DNA of 57,059 bases, filler included, from Catajapyx aquilonaris (GCA_000934665.2; 3 parts of 3 records of this genome joined end to end with filler, not necessarily neighbours in it); one strand, 5' to 3'; positions 1 to 28,100 are shown, counted from the whole stretch's first letter. Numbers and translations are program-made. Notes: generated by a model not told the origin, from the sequence alone.

Positions 1-67
1 CTGACTCGGTTCTGTTATCATGCCGTGTGGGTTGCTTAGGATAGCCAGGATAAAGCTCGTTTGCGGG
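1..67 (+). CDS. Probable upstream exon fragment of the channel (S4 segment)
   Basis: Frame 2 reads LGSVIMPCGLLRIARIKLVCG, followed by GT at 68. A phase-0 join to the exon at 734 (VLDFF) gives an S4-like LRxxRI..V.DFF pattern. An in-frame TGA at 2-4 lowers confidence. Confidence 0.45.
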
Positions 68-733
68 GTGTATGAAACTATATGTCGTATACTGTACTCT
101 ACTTGGCAGATACTCTTGAGTATTGCCACTTTCATGCAGGAGAGTCTGCAAAATGTACATTGATACAAAATAATGTGGTCTAAATTCTGAAACACAGTAG
201 AAATATCACTGCCTCTACTTAAACAAAGAATACAAGGACATGTGACACATTGCATGAGTAAAGTGGGCAGAGTCATCCGCTTTAATATCTATGGTTGATT
301 GGTTCAGGTGAAAACAAAGAATCCTCACCAATGTATAGAGTTGACCATGGGTTATCCACGGTATGGTTATTTGCAGTTTCGATTGTCTGCTGACGTACCA
401 CTTGTTGACTGTTTCACGTCCTATTGTCACTCAACATTCCTGTGAAATTAACCAATTTTAAAGAAGTAGTCTCAACTATTTTTGATGGAGGCTTTAGAGA
501 TACACATTTGTGTCAAGCTGGGTTTCATGATCAACAGTAAACCCTGAAGAAGTGATTGATCCTTCTTATTGTTTCAAACATTGGCACAGTTATGAATTAC
601 AAGGATGAATCACTAGTTCTGAATTCAATACTTCTCACATGATCAAGAATTAATGTCTGGATGTCACTAGTTAATGTCTTACTTCCCTTGCAATTGTGAC
701 TTGTATGTAATTATTTTCTGTTATTTTCCACAG

Positions 734-1197
734 GTACTTGACTTCTTTGTAAAAGCAGAATCAAGGGTACTTCATGGGGTCCAGTTCCTTAGGAATATCA
801 AGTGTATCATCCTTCTTGTCACAATGGTGCACTTGGTTTCTTGCCTCTTCCATGCAGTTTCATGTTTCTCACAGTGAGTTGAGTTGATTGGTTGGTTTAT
901 GCATATATTTATACAGTATTTTGTCAGCAGTTTGCTTGCTGGACAATTCTGCAAGCATTTCTCTACAGATCATTTGAAATAATTAAGCCATATTAATATG
1001 AACTAGAAAAGAGTGTTCATATGAAAGTCTGGGTGTAATTTATTATTGAATTAACCTTCTGTTCATTTGTTAAATTCATTTTTTCTGTAAAGAATTTCAG
1101 CTGGTTAATTAATGTTTGTGACGGTAACTTTTGTCTCTCCAGAGAACACATTACTGCGCAGCCAGTGGGGCTGAACGATCTATTTAATTTATTATTA

Positions 1198-1250
<53 letters not shown>

Positions 1251-4200
1251 TGTCAGTTGCTCCTCAACTCATTTTTTTGGTTGATAAATCTACATATGAT
1301 TATCATATTCATTTATAATGCAGTAGACTCCCAATATAACAGACTTCAAGGGACAGTGGAAATCAGTCTGCTGTAACTGAGGTCTGTTATAGCCACATGC
1401 ACAGGCCATAATTTATGAGGAAGTATGCTAGGAGCCTAGGACCAGCCTTTCATGTCTTCTATAATCCGGCATCTGTTATAGCCAAGGGTGTTATATCTGG
1501 AGTCAAGTCTATTGTTTTGCTGTCATCTGCTTTGAGACAATGTTATCTAATATTGTGTAATATAATGATTCAGCTGTTCCTGGCCAGTAAATGGAGGAAA
1601 CCTTGTAATTTTAGGGACTGCAGCAAGAATTCTTGGGTGCTTCCAAGTTGCATTAACCAAGGGCAGTATTTTGAGAACCCATATCTCTTAGCCCTCTATT
1701 GGAGCATGCAGGTTGTCACTTTCACCTGCTATGGGGATGTGGTGCCCCAGAACCTTCGTGAACTGGTCTTTGAGGTGCTCCTCACCATTGTCGTGCTTGT
1801 TCTTGCTGTGGGATACTACACTGCCTACATCACCTTGTACCTCATGGCCCAGTACCAGTTCAATGAACAATACATTCAACGTGTCAGGACACTAGTCACC
1901 TATTTGGATTCTCATAAGGTTAGATTAGTTGGTGTTGTCAACTTATTGGTAAATGGAATAATGTGTCTTCACTTGCAAGGTGGATAAAGAAATGAAGCAA
2001 CGTGTGGTTGACTACTATGAGATGCAATGGGTATCACACCTTGGTCTGGCCATGCCGGGAGTGTCCCCTATTGCAGATATGCCACCTACAGAGCGTCATG
2101 AACTTTTGTTACATGGCCCAGGAAAGCCCCTCTTGCAGGTGGAACTGTTCAAGGGCCTTAATAGGAGGGTTTTGCTTGATATTGCTAGCAAAATGAAGAT
2201 GTACTTTCTGCCAGCTGGGGCGCTGGTGACCAATGAGATCCACTACGGGACAGGCATGTATGTGGTTGTCAGGGGAAAATGCACAATATGGACATCCACT
2301 GGACGTCTGGTGTGTGAAAGGCATTCTGGGGATGTGTTGCTGTCACCAGTGGCTGTAATTCAGGAAGGCATGCCACCCCTGGGCTTAAGGACTCTCTGCA
2401 GCACAAATTGTATCTTTTACTACGTCAGCAACTGGAACCTTGGTAAAATCCTTGGGTATGGCACACGTTACGTAGGACCGCATCATGTACCGGTGAGTGT
2501 ATCTGTGTGTATGATATTTTTTTTTGCAGAGAGGGGAGGGGAGGTGTTGAATTCATCTCTGGTGTAAGACTCATTTTATAGGGAAATGTTATGATGGGTT
2601 GTTTGCCTCTTTGTACATCTAAAAAGCATAGAAATGGTCAAATGATTTGCATGATATGAATGGCAGAGCACATCTTCATTACAACTTTGGCAACGTTATT
2701 GGCCATGTTGAGTAGTGCATACATTTGGACACTACCTGCGCATTTAATTTCAATTTCTTAATTTTTTATACATTTAGGAAATTTTGAGTGAATTCATTCT
2801 TGGCATACTGACCTTCAATGAGCCACTCATTTTTACCAGTGAGTGGCAGATATTCTCTGCATGTAAACAAAATACGCAAACTCTCATTAGTGGTACCATG
2901 CACAGTTACACTTTTTAGCAAGTTTTTGTTGCATGTCCCAATAGTTGTGGCCATGATTACCTGTATGCCCAGAATGTTAGAAGAGGTGGAATTTGAAGAC
3001 AGCTTGTCAGTGGGATTGTCAGTGGTTCAGAGCAATAAGAAATCCACTTTGTACTTCTGAGTGTAGATTTCAGATGCAAGCACAGCACTTCGGATTTTCC
3101 AGGAAATGAAAAATAATTGGAGTAGCTGTCGCTTCTTTGGGGTTAAAAGAAGTGAATATGTCAACAGGCCTTAAATTCTGTCTTTTGATAAGCATATTTT
3201 TCGATTGGTCACATTCAGAAACACACCAGAGTCTCTAACATTCAGTCCAGTGGGACTAGTTAAGTCTTTAACAATAAAGAAACCTCTATGCAGGAATACA
3301 GAATTAGCTTAACCCTCTTCAGCTCTAGTTTGAGGCTGAGATGTACTAGTTGGACTGGTGGGAATTTATATTGTGAAGTGACAGCTCCTCTGCAGCCAAC
3401 TAGGGCCCCACGGATCAAATTTATTGCATAAAAAGTAGCCAAAGGTAAAAAAAATGGAAGTGCCAGAATATGCCAAAAAAAATCAATGCACTACTGAATT
3501 TTTTGTTATGAGAGCTCAGAGGTAGAAGGCTGTGAAGTTAACCATTATGCAGGGCATTTTACTGTATTGCCTCACAAAGAGTACCAAGAGTCCAGTATAA
3601 AATGAGGTTGACCAGTGGGTCTGCATACCCAGTGGAGCTGTCTGCCCAGTGTAAAGTGGGATAGAGTTTATTATTTCCTTCTTCCCTTGAAAATTGTATA
3701 TTTTTATGGGAACTTCAATTAATTGTCTGTAACTATATTCAGAAAACTGAATGTCAGGTTAGAATACATGAAGTTTAAATGTGTGCAGTCCACTCCATTT
3801 TTTTCCTCCCCAGAAGGCATGGTTTCAAAATTATGCATGCCTACGTGTAGAGAATGTGGACAAACTCCACTCAACACTGGTATGATGGTATAACCACCAG
3901 GTGTGCATTTTCTAAAATCTAATCACTCCTGATTTTACCATACTGCTGCTCTTTGCAGGGTAATATGGTATTATGCATATGATTTTTCAAGTTGCCATTT
4001 GCAATAATTTTGATACAATGTGCCTAGAAACATGCTTCTGAACATGTCCTTATAAATGAAATGTGAATACTGTGGAATATTCTGAATTTAATTGGTTGAA
4101 TTTCACCCCTTACGGTATATGTGCAGCTTATAATGGATGTGGGCAAGCTAATGGCTGCAATGAATTACAACCCTAAGGAGACCTCTTCTCCAACGCTGAC

Positions 4201-7200
4201 ACGACCTCGTTCAATTGATTTGCATTTAAACATGGAAGAGAGTGGCAGCAAGGATGTTAGCTGGTTCAAGAGACAAGATATTGGCAAGTTGAAGAAGTTT
4301 GCACAAAAAATAATTAGGCCTCACGATACTGTGCAGGATGTGAATATTGTCCCTGAAGCTTGGCCGAAGGATGAAAACTCATCACAGGGTTACATGTCAT
4401 ATTCGCGTAAGGACTCTATTCCAACAGATTCCTGGAGGATGATACCATATTGGATCATTATAAGTGAAGAATTTAATGCAAAGTGGGATTCTTATAAAGT
4501 CATGAAATTTCTCAGGTGAGATATAATGTATGAGTGTAAGATAGGTTATTTCTAGCAGTATTAATGTCATCAATCCTGCATTTAAATCAACTTTTAATGA
4601 AATTATATCAGTCACATTTTATGTTTTATACCGTACCATGAGTCTTAAATCAGTGGTCTATGGACCTGTGTGATGGGGGTTGCCAAAATATTGCCTGGTA
4701 AAATGACTGGGATATGCAATATACTTACTTGTATAATACAGTACGTACATGATCTGTTATGGCTGAAAAGTTATGTGAATGTTCAGATATCTCAATCACT
4801 GGCCAGCGGTGTAACCGATAGACCACCATGCCGCCCTCTTAGCAGCTATTAATCCAAACTCAATATGAAATAAAGGCTGAGAAATGCCTTATTTGTTGCT
4901 GTGCCAGTTTCCACAGGATTGTGAACCAGAATTGCATATGGGTACCATGAAGATATAATGGTCCATGTATGGTGACTTGTTAGTGCAAATTGACTGGACA
5001 TTTAAAAAATGGGAAAAATAACAACGAATTTGAAAATGTTGGCTGAAAGTACTAATCCTCTTAGCAATACGTTAAGTAATATATTGGGATATCAAATAAA
5101 TAAGTACCAATCACTTTCCTTAATTGCATTTGGTTATTTTCCTACCACTTGTACTTAACCTAAATAAGACACAATAACAGAATATTCAAAATGGTATGTT
5201 TGGTATTATTAGGGCTTAATAAATCACGCTATTGTAGCAGACTGGGACACTGAGATGAATTTGCAGTCTTAGTTAGACCCAAACTTCGCAGGCTGTTGCA
5301 CCTCAANNNNNNNNNNNNNNNNNNNNNNNNNNNNNNNNNNNNNNNNNNNNNNNNNNNNNNNNNNNNNNNNNNNNNNNNNNNNNNNNNNNNNNNNNNNNNN
5401 NNNNNNNNNNNNNNNNNNNNNNNNNNNNNNNNNNNNNNNNNNNNNNNNNNNNNNNNNNNNNNNNNNNNNNNNNNNNNNNNCCCCCCCCCCCCCCCCCCCC
5501 CATCGGGGATGTCCCAAGGGAGAGAGAGGAAAATCATATCATCTGTAGTGTAACAGGATATAAAATTAATATCCATATTAAAGTCTAACCCCCTTCCAGT
5601 AGGCCGAGTAGGGGATCTCCGTAAAAATTAGTTCCTTCAAAGCTCAGACAAATGTCAATGGAAAGACTTTCATGTCGGGAGACCAAATGTGCCAGGGGTA
5701 GGAGCACTCTGTACTGTACCAACCTACCCCATGACCTAACTTTCCTTCCCGCTGGATACAAGCCTAGGAAAGCAGGTAAAAGTGTGGGGTCTCCCGAAGT
5801 GAAAGAGTAGCCATGACAACCCTTATACATGTACTACTATCTGTGCTGTCTAATGTGGAATACTCCAGTGCAGGCAGTGCTGTTACTCCCTATGGGGCAT
5901 TGGATAACATTGTTCTTGATTAATTATCTTGTATCACTACACTCTATTTTAAAGATATTTTCCTTGGGGACACCCCCGACAGGGACATTTTTTCCGGGGA
6001 TGTCATATGTCGGGGACGAATTTCAGGGGACAAAATTTCTTGTCACCATAAGTTACTGCACTAGCAGCAGAACCAGTTCTTCGCAAGGCTGGTTTCCATG
6101 GTAACTCCTTTGGGTATAAAATTGGTGTAAGTGGGTATGAAATGGGTATATACCATGGGACCCCCCCCCCCCTCCCCCATCCACCTGTACAAACAAACTT
6201 CGCCTTTTACATAATTATGTAGATATGTAGATATTGTACTATTTTTGCTTTAAAATATTGGGTGTATGCTCTGAGAGTTATTAATTCTTGACTTTCCAGG
6301 TATTTCATGATGGAGAGAGCTCTAAATCCAAGTGGTACTTTCCTGAAATATTGGGAGATCTTCCGCATAATGACCATATTTGTTATGTCACTGGTGCTTC
6401 CTGTATTGGCTATTCACAAACCACATGATATTCTGGAATATGTCATAGCAGTGACCTTTGATCTCACCATCTATGCAGACATGTGAGTTTGTGTTGCTGT
6501 TTTGCTGCTATCCGTAAACTTTTGCTTGCACTGGTAATGCAATGTCCTTACAAACAAATACCACTTCCCGAAACCCATGCTGCTGGGATATACATGGTGT
6601 TCGGAAATGAGATACCAGCATGATACTAAAGTTTGATGACACCTTTCCGAATCGATAAGTTCATGCATTTGGTCTCATGCAACTAATGTACTACATAGGC
6701 TATCAGTGATTTGTCTAAACTTTAAATGCATTGTCCTGTGAGGACTAAAATGTGGACCAATTTTACACATAGTTATGTCTCACTATGACCTATACTGTAT
6801 AATGCAGATCATAATGTTCAGTATTATTCATTTAATACCTAGTGAAAGGCAATAACAAAACACTATGTGTAAAGATCATTTGGAACATGTGAAGCACTGA
6901 TTTTTAATACACCACATGGAAAGTTTTGCTATTTGATAGAATCAATGTCATGTGAATTTCTTGGTAGTTGTTCTGTTAATTGTGAGGTTACTTGTCAAAC
7001 ACAACTTTTTGGACATAGCAGTATATTTGGAAAGACTAACCCTTACTGGCATGCGGGATGCGGCAGGGGGAGTGGTGGCTGGGGACAGCTTGGCTATGTC
7101 GCAAAGGCAGATTGATTTTTTGGATTTTGGAAGGGTATGCTGTACCAACCTAACCTAACCAAGCCTAACCTTCCTTCCTTGCGGATACAGACCTATCTTA

Positions 7201-10200
7201 GCGACACAGCCCGCTGACCCCACCGACTACTACCCTCCCGCCTCCCGCATGCCAGTAAGAGCAAGTACAGCCGTATGTTTATGCATTTTTGTGTAGAAGT
7301 TGCTGTGTCCATTAAAGGGATCATTTACATTTTTGCATAGTCATGAGTAAACTGGGCCTGGTTTCTATATAGCCCATTATGTGTGTTAGTTTTTATTTTA
7401 GGTGTTTGCCGATTATTCTTAGCAGTTTGACTGACCTGCATAACACCTCCATACCTGCAATAACAAATAAATACTTTGCTATAGGTCTATACTGTACAGA
7501 CTGGGCCCAGAATACTTGTGACATTGTATGTTAATGATTCCAAAGGGATACATGCAGATCACAAGTCTATAGGAAGTGTAAGAGTTAACAGTGGCACTTT
7601 TTGAAACAAGGTATATGAAGTTGCATCTGGGATACTTCAATGAAAACAACGTGCTTGTGTATCATCAAGCAATGACCGCACATCGGTACCTGACTAATGC
7701 ATTCCCTATGGATCTCATGTCAGTGCTGCCTATTGAGTGGGCAGCCTGGTATGGCTTTGATCTGGCCAGCAAGAAGCATGGCCCAATGCTGTTCAGAGTC
7801 TGGAGGATGAACCGTATGCTGCAACTGTACAAAACTGGTGGATTTTTTTCACATCTGTCAGAGAATCTGTTCCATGCTGGCCATTTGATAAGGTTCCCCA
7901 GCTACTTAATCTTCTCAGTGATGTTCCTTAATGTGTTAGCTTGTACTGCTTTAGGAGTGGCATGCCCTACATACCTATGGGATGATGAAGTCGTCCGCTG
8001 CTTCAATGACTCCTGGATAGTAAAGGGTGGTGAGCATCACATTTTTATGGCATTATGAAACTGAGTTAGGATGGGGTAGTGCAATACATACAAAATTCAG
8101 ACATAATATAGTTAATAGTTTTAAACCTGGAGCCCTGATTTATTTTTCTAGTGCCCTTTCACCGTAGGGTCTTCAAGGAAAAAGTACAATTTCATTCTTA
8201 TCAAAAGCAGGGTTTTAAAACCTTTCATAAGTTTCATTTAAAAAATAATGTACTGTACACACCCAGGTGGGTAATACTGTAAGAAGCAGTCATCGTAATA
8301 CCTCACCCATGCTAATGTATGAAAGTCAAATGGGGTGATAGCATACTGGTCCATAATATATTGAAGAGTATGTTATTATCCTAAATATTTTCGAGTTTTT
8401 TGGCATGTCACTTTTCTTTTTGCAGGTTGGTGAAAATGGGGGTTTAAAAAGTCAACTTGAAAGCTTTAATGCAAGTTAATTATATATCAAAAATAATTAT
8501 CATCATTTAGACATATCGCATCCCGGCAATAACAGGGGCACAAGTCCAACAATGACGATTTTGACTTACTACTAGAGCAGGGTCCATGACTGCGTGCACA
8601 TTCAGAATGCATGTTCTGATTTTTAAAAATTAATAATTAATAATTCTGATTATTCGAATGCTGCATCAATACCTGATTTATGATAACACTATACCAACAC
8701 TATACAACTTTCAAAGTGCTCTCCTGTGAAATTGACTTTTTGGACTTGTGCCCCTGTTATTGCCGGGGTGCGTTTATGTAGGGATCCAGTAAAAGGAAGA
8801 GAGAGAGAAATATAATACATCTTTTTCAGACCAAAAAATAAATGAAAAACCTCTTTAAAATTTTAAAAAATGGAAGTTTTCCGGTGGAATTCATGACCAT
8901 AAAAATAATCGAAATAAAGCAATATCACTGAACAAAAACTTCACTTTTAAAATTCAAACCTTGAACCATTGGCCAAAATAATTCAGATTTCATTCTGGAC
9001 CAAAATAAAAATGCATTTCTTATTACCCATCAAAAATGTATTTCTCCACTCATAAACAAAACACAGTAACAAATGTATCTTATTATCATATCATTTATTA
9101 TTGAACATTATGATAGATATACTTGCTTTGAGAAGAGAGGATCTCTCAATCTACTGTATAAATGTAGCCTACACATAGCATGGTATAAAATAATGTTATT
9201 TTATACCATGCTATGTGTAGCATGCAATTACAGTCACAAGAACTTGATTAGACAAAAAATATGATTACTCCGGTTTTTGTCAGCATGCTTCTACTTAGGC
9301 TACATGTTAATGCACGCAATGGTCTTTTTTCCTGGCCCTCACTGCATCGTCTCCTTTAGAGGAAAAGGAGACGATGCATAGATAAAAAATGAATTCAAGG
9401 GAATAATCTTCCTTGGACAACATACTGTATAATGAATCACTCATTACCAAACTTGTTACTTCAATATTCCAAAGAAAAATGTATTCATCATGACTTCTGT
9501 TCCAACTCATGTGTTATTTACACTTTGTGACATTTATGAATGAGTAACTAGTATCATCTTGACATGTGATTTTAGGAATTCAGGACTACAACTCAAGCCT
9601 ACATGTATACCTTTACTCCTTATACTGGGCAACTACAAGTGCTGTCACTGTTGGTTATGGAGAATTAATGCCATTCACTACCCAAGAAGCTTTCATGTGC
9701 ATATGCTTCATGTTGAGTGGTAAGTTATGAGAGGATCATGTGACTCAGAACTGGGCTCATTATTTTCATCATGACTTTTTACAACAGGTTTCATGTTTTT
9801 TCACCTGATTATCACCAACATCAAAGCTCATGAGGTTGACCCAGATGCCATTCGATATACCTTTCGCAAACAACTGACCTTTTTGTTGGATTACTTGGTG
9901 CGCAATGGAGTCAGCCCTACGTTAGTCAGGTGAATTTTTCACACTATTTTGTATTTCAATTGGCTAAGGGGTACCGTAGATTAAGTTTTTAAGCACCTGA
10001 CACCCTTAGGTTTCTATAATTGCATATACTGTATGTTGGTAGATGAGGGGTATGAACAAGTAAATGCACTGGGTCAGGGATTACAGTAGGCTACAACCTC
10101 TATACAGGGTGAAGGGAAATTCGCCAGATAAACCTATAGTACTTGCAAAACTAATATAGGGATGTGCAATTAGTTCTTAGCTCCATAGTTAATGCGTATG

Positions 10201-13200
10201 GCGCCCTTAAAGTGTAGAGGGCCAGATGGTGGAATACGAGGCAAAAACAACAACGTGCATGGGTGTCATGCCCGGGTTCTTTCTCTGACGGGATTTTATC
10301 GCTTTTTGCACATGGACAATGTTGTTGGGGAACCAAGGCAAGGGACTGGAGGCCCTCGAACTGACTTTTGCTTAGAAGCTGGCGGAACGGATGTGACATC
10401 ATGAAACTTTGACCACACCTTACGCATTAACTACGCAAAGGAGTTCTAAACTAATTGCACATCCCTTGATTAGTTTCACGAGTACTATCAGTCTACCTGG
10501 CGATTGTCCACGAGTTTCCCTTCACCCTGTATACCGCTCTTCAAGGGACTGACCAAACATAGCGTTATATGAGGGAAATACGATTTAATTCACCCTTTTC
10601 TCAGGTAATGAATGCCTTCACTGTTGCTGTATGTAGGTTGAAGCCTATGAAGTATAAACTAGGCTAACGTGAACTGACCTGCCCACGTACCACATACAGT
10701 ATTTGATGTTATATGCGGAATAAGTGTGTTTCTCTGGGGACCAGGGAAATCGAGCAGTATATGCGGGAAAGCGTTAAAAGCAGGAAGCGAGTATAAGGGG
10801 TCGTGCAAATACCATGTGACCGATGTCGATGTTAGGCCACTTTTTGACAACCCCCCCACCCCCTGGGCCAACCCATTTCACGTGGTATTTTTAAATGTCA
10901 ATGTCAACTAACTTTGCTGGCTAATTGGTGAATTATTAACAGATCTGCCCATAACAGCCTGGAGCATCAGTGGCGTATGACATCTGGAATTGCATTTCGG
11001 GACCTATTCAGCTGCCTGTATCCAATGCTGGAAGAAGATGTTGCACATGCCTGCCTCCGATCAGGGCTTAACAAATTGCCATTTATCAATGAGCTCACTC
11101 TTTCAGAGTTACGCTTTCTTTCAGTAAATGTCAAGGAGTACTTTTATAGAATGGGAGAGGTCATATCACGCAGCAATGATATCCCTCCAGGTCTCACTCT
11201 CATCTGCAAGGGAAAGATTGCTGCCTGTTTCCCAAACAATGGATCTATGGTGCTAGGAGAGGGAGAGTATGTAGGCCACAACATGACCAAGGAACTAAAA
11301 GGGTTATGTACAACTTACTTTGAGTTTGTCCTCTAGCTTTGTTGGTGACTTGTCAGTATGGTCAGCGACATTCAGGTGCACATATGAGACACTCTCAGAG
11401 GTTGAAGTACTATTGTTCCTGATAGAGCATTGGGTTCTCATCCAGAAACATGCCCCAAGAGTGGCCAAGCTGTTTGCTCTATATGTGCCTAAACAAACTT
11501 GGGTATGTACCATATGTATAATCATGCGCCACATAAAATGGTGAAAAATTCAAGGTTCATTGAAATGCAAGTTAACCTGACAACCATAGCAAGCACAGTC
11601 ATGAATATGCCTAGGAAGGACCATTTTTCCATTTTGGTGTATGTGGTTTCTTGTATCACTACCCTTGGAACATTATTTGTTTGACATCAGCAACAGTTGA
11701 TCCAGCTGATATTTTCACAGGGGTGAATGGCGAGCACTCAACCATTCAGGCCCATCCTCCACAAGGTTGATATGCTGCTGGGATGTGGGATGGAGGAGGG
11801 ATTGTGAATAAATGCTTGGCCATGGCGCAATGTTCAGGTCAATCGGTGGGACAGAGGAGTAACCTACTCTTGAATAAACCTTTCACCCAAACCAATCCTT
11901 GCCTTGCTTCATTCATTGGCCTCCATCATCACATTTCACTGAGCTCTTACCTGCCCTTATTGTGGTTGCACATGAAATCGTCAACATAGTAGGTGATATT
12001 GGAATTTCCACTGGCTCTACTGCCTCTCGAATTCAATCAGACTTGGTTCACATATTAATACCTTCATGAATCATGATAATTTTTATTTTCAATATACCTG
12101 TATTTGTAACAATGACCATGTATTGTTGAATAATCCACTTTTTATTGAACATTGTAGTGATTTCACTTTTTAATGTGCTGAGGAGACATACAACATAATT
12201 ATGTGGCTCATTTATTATTGTTAGGTGAATTTATTATAAAGCCCTTTTTGGTAAATTTCAGCTTGGGAAAGGGCTGATTGACTGAAATTAAGGTTTGGCC
12301 CACAAGACCATCTTCTATCAAACTTTTCTCTGTACCCTTAGTGTAGTTTAGTAACCTTCATTTCCCATTTAACATATATTACAAGTACTGTGACTGCATT
12401 AGAGTTATGTTGTGGAAATCACTGAGATTCATATTGTAGTTTAGAGAGTACATGAATGCAATAAAGCCATGCCTCTATGGCCATAACTGAAACTCATTGT
12501 GACCTATAATTTTGGTCCTGCCAAGTGGCCTATTGCATGTGGAAAGATATTTTGGAAATTTACGATACAGTCTGGGCTTCTGATTTGATGTTAGGTAAGT
12601 TTTGAAGGCATGATTAATCCAAATATAAATTTAAAGCAGGATCATCTACAGCAGTAATGTGGTTTAGATGGTTAGCACTCAAAAAGCTCTAACAGCAAAT
12701 TTTGGCATTAACTTTTAATTATTATGAATATTATGGGGAGGCTTTCACCCTTGCACCCTGCACGATGTCTGAAGAAAATTAAGAAAATAGTGATAGAAAA
12801 ATGGTGGTGTTCCACCCCCCTAAATGGGCTTTGTCTCCCAATGGGGTAAGTAAAGTAAAATAAAAATATATTTAAAAAATTATTAATTACCGTAAAATGG
12901 GGCTACTTTGATCCCTGCGGGGCTTCTTTGGTCCAAGCACGTACCAAGTACTTCAAAAATGCATAAGATGGCAGGTAATTATACTAACTACATGTAACAA
13001 GCACAGTCAGAATCACTTAGGGTTGGTGCATCTGTGGTAAAGGTGTCATACATTGAAGTTTGCAAACCATCCTGCAGAGGGCTACTTTCCACTTTGTGCA
13101 CTTTGTCACTTCGGCGTGAGTTTTCAAGAAGTCCATACTGCTAAGACCTGTGCAGCCGCACGTGTAGGTATAAACTTCATTTAGCATGCTAGGATTTGTA

Positions 13201-16200
13201 ATACATTTAGTTGCCATTCCAGGCATATGTAAGTCAAGAAATAATTCTTATCAGGAATTGTGTGGGGGAAAAGAAATCAAAAAAGTTGTAAGTGATGGGG
13301 TACTTTGGTACATAATATTCTTGGATCAAAGAAGCCCCAAGGCTTCTGGTACATTATGGCCATGATAACTGGACTCTCTGGGTACAGTCAGTGAGTTCAA
13401 AACCCCACCCCACCCCACCCCATGGGGCTCCTTTAGTCCTGTACAGTGTTATATAATCTGCACTCCATGAACAATAGTGCAAAAGTGTTGCTAAGATGCT
13501 CAAGAATTGTGCATAATTTTTTAGTGCTCGAAACTGCAATTTTCAAGGGAGATATTAACCAAAATAACCAAAAATTGGTACAAAGTAGCCCCACTTTACA
13601 GTATAGCTGCAATTTACTGAAGAATGTAGTAGGCTGTTTTGTCATGATTTTCATTTTTTGTACCGGTACTGTAATTGATTTCCTGAAACAGACAAAATAG
13701 CCACTTCTTACAGTACCAGTACTTTACGTTATGAATGCCATTCAGCACAAGTGGTAACCTATACAAGAATGGCTAGATACATATTCTATGTTTGGATATG
13801 ATTCAAAAAAACAATTACAGTGATGTAGATAACACAACTGTTATGCAAATTTTTTCTGATTTGTAACAGTCTTTGTTAAAGTCATGACAAGTTGTGTGAT
13901 GCAATGAGATTCTGTGAGTTTGAAATATATATTTCCTTGTAATGACCACATTTTGTATACTAAGATTTTTGTTTTCCCCTTGTTTCTCAGTTGTTATCAC
14001 AGCGGAGAACCACCGTAATGACAGACCTCCCTGATGATGTCAGGTGTTATCTGCATGGCCACCCTCAAGCATTGACCACAAGTGACTCCAGTTCTAACGT
14101 AAACAAAAATCAGTCCTTCAGTGCTATACCATTAGCAATCTTCAACTGGAAAAATCGCCTTATCCGCCATGGAAGCCCTGATGACAGGGATACCCGACGG
14201 ATGTCATTTGCTCATGTCATCAGCAACAAGATGAATGTCTCTTATCTGGTTTTTCATCCAGATTGTCGGCTAGTTCACTCGATGCATGTGATTAATGGTG
14301 CTGGTGCTTTTGTCTCCATCTGGCTAGTTTTCTACCAGGCAGCAATGAATCACTCTTTCGAAACAGCCGCTTACGTACACACTGCTGTTACAATTTTGCA
14401 CTGGCTGCAAATAGCCTTGCACATAACCACAGGCTACAGAGATGAGCACAAGGTTATTGTTTGGGATCGAAGATCAATATGGAATCACTACAGGAACAAC
14501 AAGCTTCAGTTTTACATTGACATCCTGATGGCCACACCCATTGACATCATTTCCATATTTCACGATCACTACTGGCTTCTTTATATCAGGATCATCTACT
14601 GCCTGCGAATTGTAAGCTCTGTCAGCTTGTCATATTGAGGGCCCTAGTTTGAACACTAGAGGTAACTTACTCATGGGCATGTTATTTACTGTTACCGTAA
14701 CATTGTAAGGTGCATGATCATAGTAGTGTCCCATGGGTATTTTATTTCAGGTGTCCATAATAGGGGCCTGAACCAGGTAATATGTCGCCAGTAATGAATT
14801 TGTGAGTTTTTTTGGCGTTATTTTTATAACCTACAAACTGTTTGTTGATTCAATCAGGTTATTGTCCTGATCACTGTGGTGAATACAGTGTGGAATTCAG
14901 TGGTGTGTGGTGAGTAATTTGAAGTCTCTACAATTCAAATAGGCGAACGTTGTAAATTCTTATAAATGTTTTTCGTACCTGATGCGGGATGAATAGCAAC
15001 ATACTGTAGTTAAAAATCGAATTTTTAAATGTTTTAATGGAATGCCATTGTTATTTAAAATTAGATAAGCATTGAAGTTGTGATTATTGAGATTGAGAGA
15101 ATTTTGAATTTCCGAATTCAAAATTTTAACCATGTCCCTGCACTTTTTTTTCTTTCTTTTTTTTTGTCTTAGGCCAATTCCATGCTTGACCTAGAGTCCT
15201 AGACTGTAGAGCCTACAATAGTGGGTAGACTGGTAGGGCACTTTCATGGAATTTTGAATAAAACTACCAAGTTAATAATTTCCACAAATTTTTGACCATC
15301 AAACATTTTTTTAAACCAAATTAAGCTCCTATGAACTTTATTCCATGTTGAAAAGGGTATACATTGAAATACAAGTGTCACTATTGACCCAATCTATGGG
15401 GTGGTCCTCTTTTGCCTCTGTGGATGTGTAGAAGATCATTAGATGAACTTCAAAGATACCAGGACAGTACTTGAACTGATTTGAACCCAATTTTGCCACC
15501 ACCTTACAGTTAGCTGCATACTTTTGGCTCATATACATTGCCTGACCTTTATTCTTGCTGGCAGGAATTTTTCCAACATTACATTTGAAAATATGAAATA
15601 CCACTTATTGCATCTCATCATTCTAAGAATCTCATAATGATTGGTGAGTGTTAACTCAAAAATTCAAAATACTTCAAGCAGGAAATAACATAGTGACATC
15701 CAAGGGGGTAGTCACTCCTCAAAAAAGTGTACACCGGCTCTCCGCGGCTCTCCCCCGGCCCACCAGCAGGCTCATCCATGGTATTATGGGCTCACCGCTG
15801 CATTGGAGAGCCGCAAAGAGCTGCAGAGAGCTTCGGAAAGCCAACTACGTCACAACCTGCGGGATGGATGATAGGACATCAATATGATGTAGTTTTCCCT
15901 CGGCTCTCCGCGGCTCACCAGTGAGGGTGTACACCGGCTCTCCGAAGTGACTACCCCCTTGGTGACATCATTGCCATTTGTTATTGTATTCAATATTTGC
16001 TGCATGTACGTATATTGCACTGAATAACTATGAAAATAAATTTTGTTCCCTTAGGTGTATGTGGACAAAGCGTTTCTGTTGGACCCAGATGACATCAATC
16101 AGAACCTGGTCATTATTCGCATTCGCAAGCTCATCGTGATGCTTCTATTATTCTGCCATTGTGCTGCCTGTTCTCTCTATATTGCCAATTGTGCTTTGGG

Positions 16201-17545
16201 TCATTGTAATCATGCTGATTATTTCTATGACATATGGGAGACTGAAAGTCCATATATGCACCAGGGCGGTGCAGGACTTAGTAGTGCAGGAAAGGGATGG
16301 CTTGAGAATCTTCTTCCTGGAGAGGAGAGCTGGCTTTACTTGAGAAGATATTTGACTGTCCTGACTTGGGTGATACATACTGTCACCATGGTGGGGCTCA
16401 ATTCTCTGAGTCCTTACTCCCACACAATGCTAATTTTCAGCATTTGCCTCATGGTGGCTAGTGTGTTTGTTATGGGAAGAGTCATGGGAGGTCTGGCATC
16501 AGTCCTGAGATATGAGTACCAGAATCAGATGATATTCATGCAGGTTGTGAAGGTGGTTATGGTAAGTGTTACACAGTATTACATTGAGTATAGAAATAGT
16601 GCCCAAACAACATCCTGCATTGCTTCCTCAAAGTGAAATCCATGATCTTGCTGATGCTTCTTTAGCTCCCCAAAAATGTGGAAGTCACAGGGGGACAAGT
16701 CTGGACTGTACTCCGGATGCTGGAGTAATTTCCATACGATTATTATTATTTTTTTTGGAAAGGCAAACCGAGATGATTTTCGTAGTCGGGGCAGGCATTA
16801 TTATATGAAAATGAACGTATTATTCCTGCAGGCGGCTTGGACTTGATTGAAACTCAAGGGGCTGGAAGCATGGAGGGTCATATTGACTTTTTGGACCACA
16901 AAAGCCCACCACTGATCGAGTTTATGATGATGCCCACCCACACACTGAAAATCATTGAAGATTGCATTTCCATATTTAGATGGAAAACACTCCAGCATTT
17001 GGGGTATGGCCCAGATTTGTCCCCATGACTTTCACATTTTCAGGGAGCTGAAGAAGCATCTACCTTCTACTGTCACAAATTTCACTTAGAGGAAATGATG
17101 CCGAGTGATGCAGAATGCTGGTTGGGAAGGATTTTGTCAGCAATCTACCAACTTCTTTGCAAGAGACACTTGAGACTGTCTCATTATTTTTTATGCAATC
17201 ATAGTGTTATGTACTAGAATTGGAATGCAGATCTTCACTTATTTTAATCAATTCAACGAAGATTCAAGAGGGATCAATTTATTATTATTCAATATGAGGG
17301 ATCCCATATTCTCAGTTTAAACACTTCTAAATTCTTGTAGGCCATATTTCACGTCACATTTTTTATTGCAGAAATTCTTGCATTCAATGGGACTTGAAAA
17401 AGAGAAGACGGACACATTACATAAGTATTGCAAGTACAAGTGGTTTCTTTCTGAGGGTGTGTACCAGCAGGATTTGATGAAGAATCTTCCAAGATGTCTC
17501 CGGAGTGATATTTGCTGGCAGCTGTATGCAGAGAGATTGCAAGGC
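734..17545 (+). CDS. Concatenated cyclic nucleotide-gated K+ channel (CNGK/tetraKCNG-like), partial; 13 exons
   Basis: Phase-consistent GT-AG exons: 734-873, 1615-1918, 1980-2492, 4127-4515, 6300-6482, 7611-8029, 9576-9719, 9788-9929, 10943-11266, 11337-11502, 13991-14611, 16055-16561, 17372-17545 (4026 nt, about 1342 aa). Three tandem transmembrane + C-linker/CNBD units. Pores: LYWSMQVVTFTCYGD, LYWATTSAVTVGYGE, LTWVIHTVTMVGLNS. S4 FRVWRMNRMLQLYK. C-linker RVVDYYEMQW..MPPTERHEL. The 5' part lies upstream of the window. Confidence 0.88.
1321..1514. mobile_element. pogo/Tigger-like MITE (TATAAC/GTTATA family)
   Basis: Starts CAGTAGACTCCCAATATAACAGACTTCAAGGGAC and is similar throughout to the copies at 36280-36458 and 33584-33750. 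Confidence 0.6.
7016..7274. mobile_element. Palindromic non-autonomous element with internal (AACCT)n
   Basis: Inverted repeat CTTACTGGCATGCGGGA / TCCCGCATGCCAGTAAG, with AACCTAACCTAACC inside. Confidence 0.5.
8517..8772. mobile_element. MITE with about 33-bp TIRs
   Basis: CGCATCCCGGCAATAACAGGGGCACAAGTCCAA ... TTGGACTTGTGCCCCTGTTATTGCCGGGGTGCG. Confidence 0.7.
10105..10529. mobile_element. Tc1/mariner-type MITE
   Basis: TA-CAGGGTGAAGGGAAA ... TTTCCCTTCACCCTG-TA, plus subterminal inverted repeats (GGGATGTGCAATTAGTT / AACTAATTGCACATCCC). Confidence 0.8.
12890..13601. mobile_element. pogo-like non-autonomous DNA transposon
   Basis: TA-CCGTAAAATGGGGCTACTTTG ... CAAAGTAGCCCCACTTTACAG-TA, with internal copies of the GGGGCTTCTTTG motif. 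Confidence 0.75.
15701..15961. mobile_element. MITE with 16-bp TIR and 8-bp TSD (P/hAT-like)
   Basis: Perfect TIR CAAGGGGGTAGTCACT / AGTGACTACCCCCTTG. Perfect TSD GTGACATC at 15693-15700 and 15962-15969. Internal CGGCTCTCCG repeats. Confidence 0.88.
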
Positions 17546-17802
17546 GTGAGTGTTTTTCTGAACATTAGCAGGATACCTTAATCAAATTGGTCAACATATG
17601 GACCTTGACCTAGTCAGTAAGGTGCAGATATCGTATGTCAAGAGCGTGAATCCTGTCTCAATCTGAGTAAATTGCACTCAGTCTTGAGGGATTGTCACAG
17701 GTTGTTGATGGAATTATGCCCAGTCCCTCATGCTACAGTTTTTTAACAGTATTACGTACAGCTGAAATCACCTTCACAATCTGTGAAATGACAGTCATGT
17801 AA
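17546..17802 (+). pseudogene. Frameshifted CNBD-like continuation of the third visible channel repeat
   Basis: With two compensating frameshifts (about 17570 and 17620) it reads VSVFLNIS/GYLNQIGQHMDLDLVS/GADIVCQERESC..LHSVLRGLSQVV. This aligns by eye with the first CNBD (VELFKGLNRRVLLDIASKMKMYFLPAGALVTNE..MYVVVRGKCTI). Confidence 0.55.
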
Positions 17803-17825: not shown

Positions 17826-18115
17826 GTTTTTTTTTACGTTACCCTGTGATAAGGCGGAGCCAGGGGCGGAGCCTTTTTAGGGGGGTGGCACACCACCATC
17901 AGTTTTCTAGTAACTGTGTACTATTTTTCTTTGCTCACCAGTGCAAGGAGACAGGGACATGGGTAAGGATAGGGATTTTTGAGTGGGGAACATATATGTG
18001 GTACAAGTGCAAGGTCTGTAAAGGGGTCATGTGCTGTTCCCCAGGAGGTTAGGTTGCCAGACACCTCCAAGGTGCAGGTCAGAGACCCTCCTGACGCAGG
18101 TGAAAGGAAAGTGAT
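17826..18115 (-). mobile_element. SINE family A, 5'-truncated copy
   Basis: Highly similar to 25066-25330 but lacks the tRNA head. Near-perfect TSD ATTCCCTAT(T/G)ATGT at 17812-17825 and 18116-18129. Confidence 0.8.
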
Positions 18116-19036
18116 ATTCCCTATGATGTTAAAATGTGCCACTTCGCCTACTCGTAGGAACTCTCAAGCCAGAAAGGTTATCATGGAATAAGAGACAGAT
18201 CACAAGAGAAATATAAATAAAAACAGCCTTTCCTGTATTCGTTCTCTCTTTTCTCTCTCCATCTATCCATCTGTATACCTTATTGTACAATATAGCCATA
18301 CGGCCTTGTTTGCTTTGGTTTCTTCCTTCTCAAACAACAGACAAACAAACAAACAAGAGGAATATGAAGTATGTGGCCAATCTCTGTCAGCAGGTGCAAA
18401 ATACAAATGTAATTTTAACTATGAGTAAAAAGCTTCATAATATTGTCCAATCACTTAGTTGTGTACCAGTAAAGTGGTAAGTGCCCAAATGGCTAAATGG
18501 CACATTCTGTCATTCTTTGATGAAAGATGACAACCAATATGTTTCCCCACTGATAGCATCATTGCGCTCCTCATTCACATGCAATGTTATAGGTCAATGG
18601 TCAACACTAATTACAGTGCTTAGTAACTCATAAAAATAATTAATTTTTAAAACGTTGTCAGCACCAACTATGAGTCGATAGCATGCATTTACTAGTACAT
18701 AAGAGATTATATGTGCATTAAAGTAGCTGTCTTACTTGTGCAAGGAAAAGTGCCTCCACCTCCACCACTGATAGCTCTTTCTTCATGCCACATTGCACCT
18801 TCCACATTTTAAATGTGAGACCTTTATGTCAAATTAATCGTCAAAATCATCCACAACTCATGCAATCTATGACTAAATTCTGGATGTAGGTACTGTAATG
18901 ATATGCTAAGATATGTTCTTGTGTAGTATCTCCTATNNNNNNNNNNNNNNNNNNNNNNNNNNNNNNNNNNNNNNNNNNNNTTAATTAATTAANNNNNNNN
19001 NNNNNNNNNNNNNNNNNNNNNNNNNNNNNNNNNNNN

Positions 19037-19198
19037 GAAGATGTTACACCAGCATTTCCGACACATTTTCCATGCACAGATTTGTTTTGCAGGCAAAAAA
19101 AGCCAGGTGTCCTGGGACTTTTCGCCCACCCTGTACTACCATTGCTCCTCGCACAAGCTAAACCTTGTCGTGCACGACTTAAACGTCATCCCACAAAT

Positions 19199-19273
<75 letters not shown>

Positions 19274-20787
19274 CCGGGGTAGTGCTGACCTCATCAGAGG
19301 TATGTAGCACGGACCTTTATTTATTTTTGTCGTGTACATTGGAGCCTTTATACGTAACGCCCGGGCCCACGGGCAGGATGACAGGAGGGGATGTGCAAGG
19401 TGCAGTGCAATGTCTTTATGTGGCCATTTTTAGTGAACTCCCCGGGTGGTTTAGTCTGTAGGAAATACCACCCGAGACGAAGCCAGAGGTGACCCAATGA
19501 ACTCTGCACGAGATGAAGGGGGTGTCCCCGGGTTGGGATCGAACCCGGGACCTTAACATCCGTGGGCGCGTACGTTACCGCAGCACCACTTCGCCTCCCC
19601 TCATCCCACAAATTAGAAACTGCATTGGAACTATCAAGGAGATAATCATATTTTTTCGCGAGTCCGTTTTATGCCGCAACGTTATTGCTAACATTCCTAA
19701 ATTGTGTGAGACTAAATGGTCAGAGAAGTACAAATGCATTTCTGTCTTTAAGGATCACTTCGTTGATATTGTCGATGCATTAGAGACATTAGCTGAAGAG
19801 GGAAATGCAGTAACTAGAAAAAATACATATCAAATGCATGCAGCGGCATGCAGATCTTCATTTGTTGTGTCAATAGCATTAATTGCGAAGTATTCCGCTA
19901 TACTGGAACCCGTAGCAAATACACTTCAATTGAAGACACTTGACATAGTCAAAGCCAACCAGCACATTTAAACTATTCTCGAAATGCTAAGAGTTCATCG
20001 GGAAGATGCGGAGAACGTCACAGCTGACGTTTTGAAAGAAGCAGGTGACATTGCGAAGCATTTGAATGTTGATATAACCGCCACTCACGTTGCTGGCCGA
20101 CAAAAGCATAGAAAAGCAACCCTCCAGCCGAAAATCTATCCGAATTTTGGCGAAGGTCTCTAATAATTCCTTACTTGGATTCCATCATATCATCTTTAGA
20201 AATGTCAGATGTTCTGCAGACAAATCGCCTGCATTTTCATTGACACATTTCCATCCGAGTAACATGAGAGATGTTTCAATGGAGGAATGGAAAGAAAGTA
20301 CTTCATTTTGTGCAACTTTTTACAATTTGGAAGCAAGTTTGGATGGTATCGAAGGAGAAAGGGAATTGTGGTTCAAAATGTGGAATGGGGTACAGGAAGC
20401 ACTAGACATCATTGAGGTTTTAAAAAAGAGCAAATTGTTTTTCCCCGCCATTAAAAAAGCACTACTGATATTGCTTTCACAGCCCTGCACAACAAGCACT
20501 ATAGAGCGTTCATTCAGCTCACTTCGCCGAATTAAAACATGGCTAAGAAGCACTATGGCTGAAAATAGGTTGAATGGGTTAGCCATGCTAAGCATTCACA
20601 GTCAATGGGTTTTCGGAAACAAGGAACAATTGGTGGAAGCTATAATCAGAAAATTTGCAAGTAATCCTCGCAAACTATTGTTCAAAAATTAATTCGGTTC
20701 TTACGTTATTGTGAATTTCTCTCTCTCTCTCTTCCCCCCCCCCCCCCCCNNNNNNNCCCACCCCCTCTGCCGCTGGATACACCCTTG
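19037..20787 (+). mobile_element. hAT transposon remnant (ZMYM1/PRKRIR-like transposase, disrupted)
   Basis: Motifs HCSSHKLNL, LCETKW and the C-terminal hAT dimerisation motif PCTTSTIERSFSSLRRIKTWLRSTMAENRLNGLAMLSIH. Contains stops/frameshifts and a SINE insertion. Probable right TIR CTGGATACACCCTTG ends at 20787; the 5' part is lost in the gap. Confidence 0.88.
19201..19600 (-). mobile_element. tRNA-derived SINE family B inserted in the hAT transposase
   Basis: B-box GGTTCGATCCC on the - strand, (ATT)n tail, and perfect 15-bp TSD TCATCCCACAAATTA (19186-19200, 19601-19615). Confidence 0.92.
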
Positions 20788-21713
20788 CCACTGTACGACA
20801 ATAGTGAGATGAAACCGCGGACTAAAAGGGATGAAACATGACGAACATGATAGTCATAATTATGTTGCACATGCGTTCAACCGTTAATAGTTCTGTTCTT
20901 TGTACTCGTGTATCACCCGTTTGTGCTCGGCGACCGGTACCAGAACGGCAGAACTTCTTGCCACATTCGTTGCACGCAATGCAACGGCACTCTTCGGCAG
21001 AACAACTTAAGTTGCACTTGTACTGTACGGCCTCCCCTTGAAATGGCCCAGTTCGTGTATGTCCCGCGACATCTTAGGCTTCTTAGCAACGTACGACTTA
21101 CCGCACACTTTGCATGCGTGCAGTAGCCCTACGGCTGCTCGCCAGTGTCATAGCCAGTGTGAAGCCGCGGATGGTTATAACCAGCAGATTGAACCGGTTA
21201 ACCAGCAGATTGAACCGTGACGACAGCACCCTCCCGCATTCCTTGCACGTTTCAGGCATAAAAGGCGGCTGCTTACTCGATCTGAACTCCTACGTTCGAT
21301 GGTGTATCTTCAGCCTGTTGTCTGAACTGAGGCTTTTTCCAGGTCACACGCTCACAAAGACGCCAACGTGCAACATACTGATAGAACAAACTTCTCAACC
21401 GTTACGTACAGTCAAATCAAAATAGTAGCGAACTCTGGACATCGACTGGGCACAAATAGTTGGCGAAATTTGTATTTAAACCTGATTTAAACATTGCTAA
21501 AAATTTGTTACGTAAGCTGATGAGAACGGATCGTTTTATATTTTGGATTGAGTCATTGCAGTTTATTTTTATATGCGTGTACATTCCCTTCATTGTTCAT
21601 GGAGAGCGATGGAGGGCTTGAAGCCTTGAACCTTGAAGGAGTGCTTATATTAGCCGAATATTTTCTGCTCTCTCCTACATTACCGGTTGGCTGCTATAGG
21701 GGCGCAGCAGAAA

Positions 21714-21920
21714 TTCTGCCGTCAGATGTAAGAAGACCGTATCTCAAAAACTAGTGAGGGTGAAAGTCACATGCATGCCATATGTACAGTACACCTATGT
21801 ACTAATCCCCTCTGAGTCAGGTGGGAATCGTGCAGGCGTATGCATGCGGCCACGGACGAGCATGCGCCTCTCACCCTCACTAGTTTTTGAGTTACGGTCT
21901 TCTTACATCTGACGGCAGAA
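21714..21920. mobile_element. MITE / foldback with about 50-bp TIRs
   Basis: TTCTGCCGTCAGATGTAAGAAGACCGTATCTCAAAAACTAGTGAGGGTGA ... TCACCCTCACTAGTTTTTGAGTTACGGTCTTCTTACATCTGACGGCAGAA. Confidence 0.8.
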
Positions 21921-22406
21921 ATGCAGGGAACAGCTGCAGAATATAACAACTACAATAATTACTCCTTCAAAAGCTCTCCTTGAATAATGAAGGGATTGTA
22001 GAGTACAAGCAAACCCAAAGAGACGACTGCGCATGTAACGAATCAATCCAAACATATAGAACAAGCCGGCCTTATCGCAACTGCATGCTAAATTTTAGCA
22101 CTGTTGAAATACACATTTTCTTGAAAATTATTAGTGCAAAGCACGTGCCCCCATTTCGCTACTATTTTAATTTAACTGTATGTAACGGTTGGAACTTTGA
22201 AATTTCGGTTGTAGGTTGACGTCCGTCGTTGTGAGCTGGAAAAAGTTTCTGTTCAAACAGCGAACACATCAGTTCAGACCACGTCTGCCAGCCAGTGCCG
22301 GATTTACCCCCTCGGCTGCCCCTAGGCAGTTGAGATCTTCCCTGAATTTTTCAATTACGTTTTATGTGATAATGAATATTCATTGCACATTTAAATTATT
22401 GGAAAT

Positions 22407-22737
22407 AATAATAATAGTTGGGTGATAGGCGTACCCCTAGGGGTTTTCAGCCAGACCTTTATTTTGACGTTGGTACAATTTTTGGGAATCCTATTTTTGA
22501 AGTGCCCGGGACCACGGGCAGGATGACAGGAGGGGATGTGCAAGTGCAGTGCCTTGTCTGAAATGTGGTCGTTTTGTGAGCTCCCCCGGGTGGATTAGTC
22601 TAAGGAAATTCCACCCGAGAGTCAGAGACAACTCATGAACTCTGCATGAGATGAAGGGGGTGTCCCCGGGTTGGGATCGAACCCGGGACCTTAACATCCA
22701 TGGGCGCATACGTTACCGTAGAACCACTCCGCCTCCC
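22407..22737 (-). mobile_element. tRNA-derived SINE family B
   Basis: Head near-identical to the 19201-19600 copy. TSD TAAATTATTGGAAAT at 22392-22406 and 22738-22752. Confidence 0.9.
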
Positions 22738-23141
22738 TAAATTATTGGAAATTGCCTTCACAGCAGGAATAATTACCGTTATTGGTAACACAGCGGGTCA
22801 GTACTCAGAAATGTCAGAATCTTGTTTGCCTGTGCATTGAGATAGACATGGCTTCCTTTTGTCCTCGAAACAATATTACGACTTCATGTCTGGTAATTTT
22901 TCCCGTTATTGTGGTTTAATTGGGTGGAAATTAATCGAAAATGTTGCCCACAGTTTCAAGCCTCACCTGAGTGTATCATATGGGCACAAATTTGCAAAAT
23001 ATATTAATCGGCTAGGTCCCAGGATAAATCTGACCACAAACGTTGGATACCAGGGGAAATGAATGTGAATATTTTGCACAAATATACACAAATCTTTATT
23101 CCAGGTCTTGCTGTGGTTACCCTTTGAAGTTGCCCCAAGAG

Positions 23142-24365
23142 ATGCCTCCAAACGGCCAAGATTTCTGCTGTGTTTCTAGATGTTTAAACCACCACCCCGA
23201 GTCGAAGGACAGCTCCACGTACGTCTTCTTCCCATTTCCGGCCAATCCAGAAATCAGGTTACAATGGATGGAGGCCATACTCAAGCCAGAGGAGTACAAG
23301 GTCTGCTCCAAGCACTTCCTGAGGGATGACATCGTCACCATTCAGGCCGTGGAGCAACCGAAGCTACAGGAAAATGTTGTTCCGATATTCTTTGCACCCA
23401 CAGGTATAGTTAACTACAGAGGTTGATTGCACGAATGTTTGACATTACGGTACCTTTTCTTTCAGACTTCGATTTCAAGGAAATCCTGTCATTGCCTGCA
23501 CCCAGCTATTCAACTACAGCAATATCAACCGAACCTGCCGCTGCGGACAAGTCACCAGATGCATCTGTAGCTATGGTGGATGGCCCTACATTTTCCTCTG
23601 ATACCAATTTTGTGATTAGGGTATGAGAACAGTTTTGAGCATTTGAGCTGCAGTTAATGCGATGCATAGGGTTAGGGGTTAATTGTGTTTCTACAATGTG
23701 CTGTAACAGGAACATGATTAAACTAATGTAACAGTGAATGGACAATGATGAAACACATTCTGGTTTCAGAGGAGCTGAAAGAAGAAATCATTTTAACTTT
23801 TCCAAGCAATGGGACTGATGAATCTATGCAGTCAAATTGATTCGAAGGTGCAGGGCAAGTGACAGGTTCTGTTGCTGAACATGGTGTTCCAAGTGCCGAA
23901 TCTGCACAGGAAGAGACTGTAGGAAACAGCAGCCTAGAGGTTGCCAGAAGCAATGCGGCACAAGAAGAAAAATCTCTTGGCTCATAAGCACATTTACAGG
24001 GTGGAGTAATATATTCTGGCTGTACCCCCCAAGCTCTAGGCAGGTGCTTTACTTGTGCTCATGCATAATTTCTTAATTTCAGGGATAGAAGTGACTGTGC
24101 ATACACAATCAACCTGTCGTCTCAATTATCTCATACTTACGGTGTAGTTACTAACGGTGCACTGCAGAAACTTTGCAACCCCTGCAGCCAGCGATTCGCC
24201 GTGGTTATGCAGGATGTGTGGCACGTGCTTTATAAAGAGCTGCGTACTTAAAGCGCACTTCATGACCTTCACAACATTGATGTGTTTCCTTGTGAGATGT
24301 GCAAGAAGCAGTTTGAGACCGAGGGGAAGCTGAAGTTGAAAAGGGCATGCACAGAGAGTACCATT
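23142..24365 (+). pseudogene. THAP-domain + C2H2 zinc-finger gene, 3' part disrupted
   Basis: Exon 23142-23403 encodes a THAP C2CH domain (CCVSRC..FFPFP..RLQW..VCSKHF..L..NVVP). Exon 23466-23620 is in phase. Later exon-like segments contain an in-frame TGA (about 23838) and frameshifted C2H2 fingers (CRMCGTCF..LKAHF; FPCEMCKKQF). Confidence 0.65.

Positions 24366-28037: not shown

Positions 28038-28100
<63 letters not shown>

Follow-up and report, generated by a model that had tools for sequence, protein, structure and literature searches.

The HCN, CNG and KCNH channels and the bacterial SthK share a fold of pore, C-linker and CNBD and carry one repeat per chain. In CNGK channels (tetraKCNG) four such repeats, each consisting of S1-S6, C-linker and CNBD, are joined in a single chain of ∼2200 aa, and their distribution has been described as choanoflagellates, marine invertebrates and fish (PMC4749565). 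One review sees 'no obvious adaptations or specializations' among these repeats (PMC6259924). The working nucleotide site of sea urchin CNGK is CNBD III, and zebrafish CNGK is not gated by nucleotides (PMC4749565). Here we describe a gene of the same architecture in a terrestrial hexapod, with three paralogs in one genome, two of them in tandem.

The window, i.e. the whole stretch of DNA that was analysed, comprises 57,059 nt from Catajapyx aquilonaris and consists of contigs joined by N linkers: positions 1 to ∼18936 are contig C4081 and 19037-38038 are C4082. Because of these linkers, genes beyond 19 kb are not established neighbours of the gene discussed here (gene A), which is cut by both ends of C4081. 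An arthropod host had been suspected from the sequence; a COX1 piece matches Japyx solifugus with 97% identity, and none of the other 119 listed matches exceeds 88%, which points to a japygid dipluran, a soil hexapod without wings. The sequence-only reading had proposed a continuous spliced frame with three tandem channel + CNBD repeats, probably repeats 2-4 of a CNGK-like K+ channel, and had named a profile search, recovery of the upstream exons and a phylogeny as checks. The continuous frame is confirmed. Thirteen exons between 734 and 17545, all with AG acceptor and GT donor, join to 4026 nt or 1342 aa with 0 stops, and their junctions recur in a paralog (gene B). The numbering of the repeats was also correct, as repeat I was found on neighbouring contigs. 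Three pores are indeed present, but the window holds the part of the gene from S5 of repeat II to the C-linker of repeat IV rather than three whole repeats. The proposed end at 17802 was wrong: the last exon lies on C5922 (1036-1692), and 17600-17830 as well as 15490-15660 have no match in the paralog contig C4716.

All exons in the window lie on the plus strand and are numbered as in the complete model of 21. Repeat II begins in the window with exon 8 (734-873; 140 nt in A and B, 57% identical), which encodes the S4-S5 linker and S5. Exon 9 (1615-1918; 304 nt in A and B, 57%) contributes the turret, pore helix, filter, S6 and A' helix. Its filter FTCYGD (1721-1738), identical in B, shows Phe at the filter threonine and Cys at the first glycine. 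Exon 10 (1980-2492; 53% to B) carries the C-linker and CNBD II, which has neither the GE motif nor the binding Arg. The linker between repeats II and III is encoded by exon 11 (4127-4515), which is weakly conserved in B (23%, E 0.03) with the same phases. For repeat III we found S1-S2 in exon 12 (6300-6482; 45% to B and 30% to gene C, a third four-repeat gene located on C1584 away from A and B), the S2-S3 loop, S3, S4 and S5 in exon 13 (7611-8029), the pore helix, filter and start of S6 in exon 14 (9576-9719; 66% to B), S6 and the A' helix in exon 15 (9788-9929), the C-linker and first half of CNBD III in exon 16 (10943-11266; 57% to B) and the second half in exon 17 (11337-11502), with GD instead of GE and no Arg at the binding position. 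The filter of this repeat, TVGYGE (9647-9664), is the sole complete K+ signature among gene A's four. Exon 18 (13991-14611; 38% to B) encodes the linker between repeats III and IV and S1-S4 of repeat IV, exon 19 (16055-16561; 52% to B) S5, turret, pore helix, filter and S6, and exon 20 (17372-17545; 54% to B, 38% to C) the C-linker. In the filter of repeat IV, MVGLNS (16388-16405), the second filter glycine is lost; B reads GLY there. Phase and comparison with the paralog led us to discard two candidate exons (15510-15643, 17683-17802), as well as an acceptor at 1574 and a donor at 14661.

We detected Pfam pore domains in 3 of the 12 exon pieces scanned (E 1.9e-5, 6.7e-7 for PF07885 in exon 14, and 1.4e-4), while the two CNBDs encoded in the window, CNBD II and III, scored weakly (E 0.25 and 0.027). 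PF00027 was above the cut-off for CNBD I and CNBD IV. With a profile made of 24 pore-to-CNBD modules of CNGK we found four modules in gene A (107-152 bits), and CNBD II and III were aligned through their module despite their weak scores. A CNBD is therefore present after each of the four repeats, by PF00027 for I and IV and by module alignment for II and III.

The missing parts of gene A were recovered from neighbouring contigs. Upstream, C1470 carries the start codon and S1-S5 of repeat I and overlaps C12537 at 99.1% over 341 nt, which in turn overlaps C8438 at 94.2% over 1498 nt. C8438 holds the pore and CNBD I, two linker exons, which were located through paralog B, and S1-S4 of repeat II. 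The intronic start of C4081 (1-97) touches C8438 only by an inverted end match: bases 2-97 match the final 96 bases of C8438 in reverse complement, at 100%. Since this is the sole contact, we infer the junction from paralog B, in which the two flanking exons lie on one contig. C4080 was rejected as the upstream neighbour of C4081. Downstream, 17936-18936, in the last intron, overlaps C5922 (1-996) at 96.5% over 1005 nt, and exon 21 with CNBD IV and the stop follows (C5922, 1036-1692). The one junction which is unlinked in A sits inside one contig in B, and the converse also holds. The completed genomic model predicts 21 exons and 2253 aa with 0 internal stops, in which four repeats of S1-S6, C-linker and CNBD follow each other in a single frame. 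We are almost certain that gene A is intact and encodes one chain of four repeats.

Gene B begins ∼6.2 kb past the stop of gene A on the same strand of C5922 and thus forms a tandem with it. It continues through C10269, C8661, C4664 and C4716, with overlaps linking all of these contigs except C10269 and C8661, and comprises 21 exons and 2339 aa; 19 of its 20 donors are GT and one is GC. All 20 intron phases are identical between A and B, and 13 of the 21 exons have identical lengths. This agreement argues against a chance frame as the source of the multi-repeat gene. It includes both introns which link repeats, at 2492-4127 and 11502-13991, each a phase-0 GT-AG intron. Over 2228 codons the two proteins are 46% identical, with dN of 0.46, dS of 2.8 (near saturation) and dN/dS of ∼0.16. 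The codon comparison indicates that A and B are under purifying selection.

A phmmer search with the repeat I exon against 1.84 billion representatives returned 2871 matches at E≤0.001. The best 150 of these were 18-29% identical and the top ones showed four matched stretches; given this low identity, there is no close ortholog among the best 150 of the 2871. We looked up the names of 30 of the 150, chosen by hand. They include sea cucumber tetraKCNG, fish CNGK and proteins of a crinoid, amphioxus, a nemertean, a brachiopod and a coral, as well as six arthropod proteins which are called 'uncharacterized' or named after a domain: two from the barnacle Pollicipes (LOC119101913, LOC119106145), one from Bombyx mori (LOC101747086), two from Onthophagus taurus (LOC111427547, LOC111427895) and one from Nicrophorus (LOC108568661). 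Arthropod four-repeat relatives are thus already in RefSeq/UniRef, without names. The public models of the relatives are single chains of 1900-2200 aa. An unnamed protein, P0085, has 2026 aa, and its listed contig is 6736 nt long. For the CNBD II pair a word-index search of proteins of 302-2000 aa gave nothing at E≤0.001, and for the arthropod alignment it gave 9 matches with no new arthropod member; an Atlas search led to generic ion-channel/CNBD clusters and nothing more specific. In the literature searched, which leaves out most subscription journals, we found no description of an arthropod CNGK and no mention of the Bombyx, beetle and barnacle relatives under their gene identifiers. These identifiers are also absent from the supplements of PMC8382682 and PMC13115824, and the supplements of PMC5712127 have no cyclic-nucleotide entry, although other identifiers may be used in all three.

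Plain similarity scores alone do not single out CNGK. For the repeat I exon the top solved structure was EAG1 (77.5 bits), and two bacterial channels (112 and 99.5 bits) ranked above the best CNGK repeat (99.4 bits). The trees were built without gene C and without KCNH rows. In a repeat-level tree from a quick search (87 rows, 265 columns) the A/B repeats were sister to the same-numbered repeats of the insect clade with SH-aLRT values of 83 (I), 98 (II), 95 (III) and 97 (IV). None of the HCN, CNG (the genome's own included) and bacterial channels fell into the CNGK repeat clades. The repeat IV clade of the hexapods stood apart from the remaining repeat IV rows, and two single-domain channels of fungi were nested among the repeat III rows. 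A concatenated tree under a mixture model (17 rows, 1055 columns) gave (barnacle,(A+B, insect clade) 96/96) 99/99 and agrees with the species tree. At 2.05 changes per column the stem of A and B is very long, and it may have been attracted to the insect branches, which are long as well. The trees place gene A's repeats as orthologs, in order, of CNGK repeats I-IV rather than with HCN or CNG, subject to this long-branch effect and with KCNH outside the comparison. Independently of the trees, kinship with CNGK is supported by two sequence features. S4 of repeats I-III in A and B matches the repeat-specific CNGK patterns, and a His motif in CNBD IV is common to A, B and 4 of the 5 insect-clade rows. 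We regard CNGK ancestry of A and B as highly probable. Gene A does not fit the HCN and CNG channels with their single repeat per chain; the Catajapyx genome has separate genes which, going by motifs, we take to be HCN-type and CNG-type.

The four filters set gene A apart from the six non-arthropod animal CNGKs used for comparison. They read MQGYG, FTCYG, TVGYG and MVGLN in repeats I-IV of A and MRGYG, FTCYG, TVGYG and TVGLY in B. Hence G-x-G is found in two of gene A's four repeats and the complete TVGYG in one; a filter glycine is missing from two loops and the filter threonine from three. Across the six non-arthropod animal CNGKs all 24 repeats have G[YFL]G, whereas A and B have it in 4 of their 8 repeats and five insect-clade proteins in 5 of 20. 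The GYG/GFG signature expected of every CNGK repeat is therefore not found throughout gene A. We take the gene to be real, intact and derived from CNGK, with four repeats, but its filters speak against filing it as a K+-selective CNGK. Of the proposed label 'CNGK-like K+ channel' the first part stands, by trees and S4 patterns, and the second is doubtful: repeat II has Cys for the first glycine, repeat IV has G-L-N and only repeat III is complete. Around the filter A and B share 18 of 20 residues in repeat II, 15 of 20 in III, 12 of 20 in I and 10 of 20 in IV. The altered filter of repeat II is not decaying, since its 18 of 20 compare with 46% identity overall. The insect-clade filters are unlike those of A/B and unlike one another, a scatter that fits relaxed constraint as well as new selectivity. 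Those of the barnacle are near-canonical.

Gating by cyclic nucleotides, implied by the 'CNG' in the original label, is doubtful as well, because among the four CNBDs of gene A only CNBD I retains the binding arginine. It keeps GE and Arg, in register with 24 other CNBD channels (E254 and R263 in at least 90% of 26 rows); CNBD I of paralog B lacks the Arg. In gene A, CNBD III, which is the working site of the sea urchin channel, has neither GE nor the Arg needed for nucleotide binding. In the insect-clade rows there is no Arg at the nucleotide-binding column in any of the four CNBDs, and these proteins share degenerate filters and CNBDs with A and B. The repeat I exon was modelled with AlphaFold from 26 rows, with a mean pLDDT of 77.8 and the CNBD above 90. 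This predicted structure matches SthK and CNGA1 with E 1e-17 to 1e-16; it is silent on selectivity.

Our preferred explanation, which we put forward tentatively, is that gene A encodes a CNGK-derived four-repeat chain that serves as a sperm cation channel with an asymmetric pore and without strict K+ selectivity. The four repeats would fold around one pore, each giving one different loop. As the repeats are chained, the stoichiometry would be fixed and each loop would be free to specialise, as in Nav/Cav channels. Two of the four loops lack a filter glycine, which would interrupt the ring of K+ sites and make a mixed-cation current likely. Substitutions at the first filter glycine make K+ channels permeable to Na+ in weaver GIRK2 (Gly to Ser) and in KCNJ5 (Gly to Arg). 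A pore that conducts but is not K+-selective is, on the filter residues, a reading we find plausible though far from assured. Such a current could set the flagellar membrane potential upstream of CatSper, and gating is probably mostly independent of cyclic nucleotides, via pH or voltage as in zebrafish CNGK, or acts through CNBD I alone.

A role in sperm is probable by analogy, on account of the known role of the family and of a CatSper-beta gene in this genome, for which we found a match above the Pfam cut-off on C1074. A search for CatSper-gamma matched nowhere, controls included. A somatic function, sensory or epithelial, seems rather unlikely to us. Three paralogs would permit subfunctionalisation, and Bombyx and the beetles retain the gene although CatSper is patchy in arthropods (PMC6660944). 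However, the characterised CNGKs of sea urchin, zebrafish and Ciona are sperm or testis proteins (PMC8835908, PMC4749565), diplurans have flagellate sperm (PMC7140630) and the fast evolution of the gene fits a reproductive function.

The pore may also be dead, since Gly-to-Ser at the first filter glycine renders Kv and HCN4 pores nonconducting (PMC7306766). The protein would then be a voltage sensor, a scaffold or a proton pathway through the voltage-sensor domain like HCNL1, and gene C, whose filters are more canonical (GFG, GYG and GYG in unjoined frames of repeats II-IV), would do the K+ job. The filter of HCNL1 is likewise unconserved among species (PMC7306766), as are those of the insect clade with their 5 of 20 G-x-G. 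We nevertheless consider a non-conducting pore unlikely. Between the paralogs, the pore helix and filter of repeats II and III agree well above the overall 46%. Moreover, zebrafish HCNL1 is a single-domain homotetramer of the HCN lineage with a Met in S4 (PMC7306766), whereas S4 of repeats I-III is canonical CNGK and A and B share no Met-for-Arg change; in repeat IV the last Arg of S4 is missing from A and B alike, with no Met in its place. The combination that marks an HCNL1-type proton channel, an S4 Met with a non-conserved dead pore, is thus not what we observed.

Less likely still is a CNGK that has remained K+-selective, with the altered loops tolerated and the other loops and backbone carbonyls holding the shape of the filter. 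CNGK ancestry, the canonical repeat III and the GYG retained in repeat I are in keeping with it, and sequence alone cannot tell selectivity (PMC7576140). Against it stand the two loops without a filter glycine and the three without threonine, where all 24 non-arthropod repeats have both glycines. That each repeat is a single-domain gene of its own in a tandem array, or that the transcripts are shorter, is very improbable. There are Met codons near the start of exon 11, and the repeats of gene A are only remotely alike (13-37 bits by phmmer). In B, however, the linker exons keep both frame and phase, and the one that follows CNBD II lacks a Met among its first 46 codons. Reading on past CNBD II and III yields short tails, which are not the same in A as in B, and the relatives are modelled as single chains.

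A wider version of our cation-channel reading is speculative. The hexapod CNGK branch could have evolved an asymmetric filter of specialised loops, a counterpart in the K+-channel fold of the Nav/Cav pore, which conducts Na+ or Ca2+ in sperm and is possibly the missing depolarising or Ca2+ pathway of insect sperm where CatSper was lost. The family was already known and the insect proteins were already in databases, and the function given here is a prediction. What these data add is an extension of the CNGK lineage to diplurans, moths and beetles, in which, under purifying selection, the repeats have come to differ in filter and ligand site. They also name a candidate for insect sperm ion signalling, a poorly known field, with a Bombyx ortholog open to knockout. 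The gene is at the same time a natural experiment in which a K+-channel pore carries four different filter loops in fixed order.

Finally, we compared gene A with gene C, which was scored as unjoined frames. Repeats II, III and IV of gene A scored best on the same-numbered zones of gene C. Repeat I reached 37 bits on its same-numbered zone and 60 bits on zone III.

Two overlapping copies cover part of repeat I of gene A, the four-repeat CNGK-related channel gene, and we compared them (stretch L035 of contig C12537 vs stretch L027 of contig C8438) across codons 175-272, where 8 of the 98 codons mismatched. Within codons 180-197, which encode the extracellular turret of repeat I, 5 of the mismatches alter the amino acid and 2 are silent; the remaining 80 codons showed a single change, which was silent. 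The copies are either alleles or very recent duplicates, and the outer loop of repeat I is possibly under diversifying selection. Gene A and its tandem paralog, gene B, both have an acidic insert of ~60-70 residues inside the beta-roll of CNBD IV (L028:1150-1400 and L022:2150-2370). Upstream of gene A, 5.5-8 kb from its start codon, Pfam identified a TPD-motif gene (PF14811; L044:919-1440, minus strand) and an OPA3 gene (PF07047; L044:2584-3258, plus strand).

A third four-repeat CNBD channel gene, gene C, lies on the minus strand of contig C1584 (L009-L012, about 26000-12650). Its coding sequence is split into many small exons and the filters of repeats II-IV are more canonical (GFG, GYG and GYG). 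The gene that follows it on this contig is presumably enoyl-CoA isomerase-like.

Many unnamed four-repeat CNBD-channel proteins are on file, including P0010, P0014 and P0015 among the phmmer matches listed. Two such proteins, P0010 and P0015, were included in the repeat-level tree, which placed their repeats outside the animal CNGK clades and so points to separate quadruplications.

In the window, the hAT transposase dimerisation domain (20078-20692, +) and the THAP domain (23034-23426, +) are remnants of DNA transposons. An HMG-box exon (27369-27710, +), an RRM exon that we take to be Tra2-like (39095-39451, +) and an oxidoreductase NAD-binding exon (45814-46164, -) are on contigs different from that of the channel gene.

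Elsewhere in this likely dipluran genome, CatSper-beta exons scored above the Pfam cut-off (L045-L047; C1074:39197-40311). A channel gene on C1473 (33300-38200) is, we assume, of HCN type, and ~9 kb downstream of it we observed divergent frames (46400-47900), presumably histone H4- and H3-like. COX1 pieces were found on C5905 and C8523 (L048-L051); the C5905 copy, which is broken across two frames, may represent mitochondrial DNA inserted into the nuclear genome.
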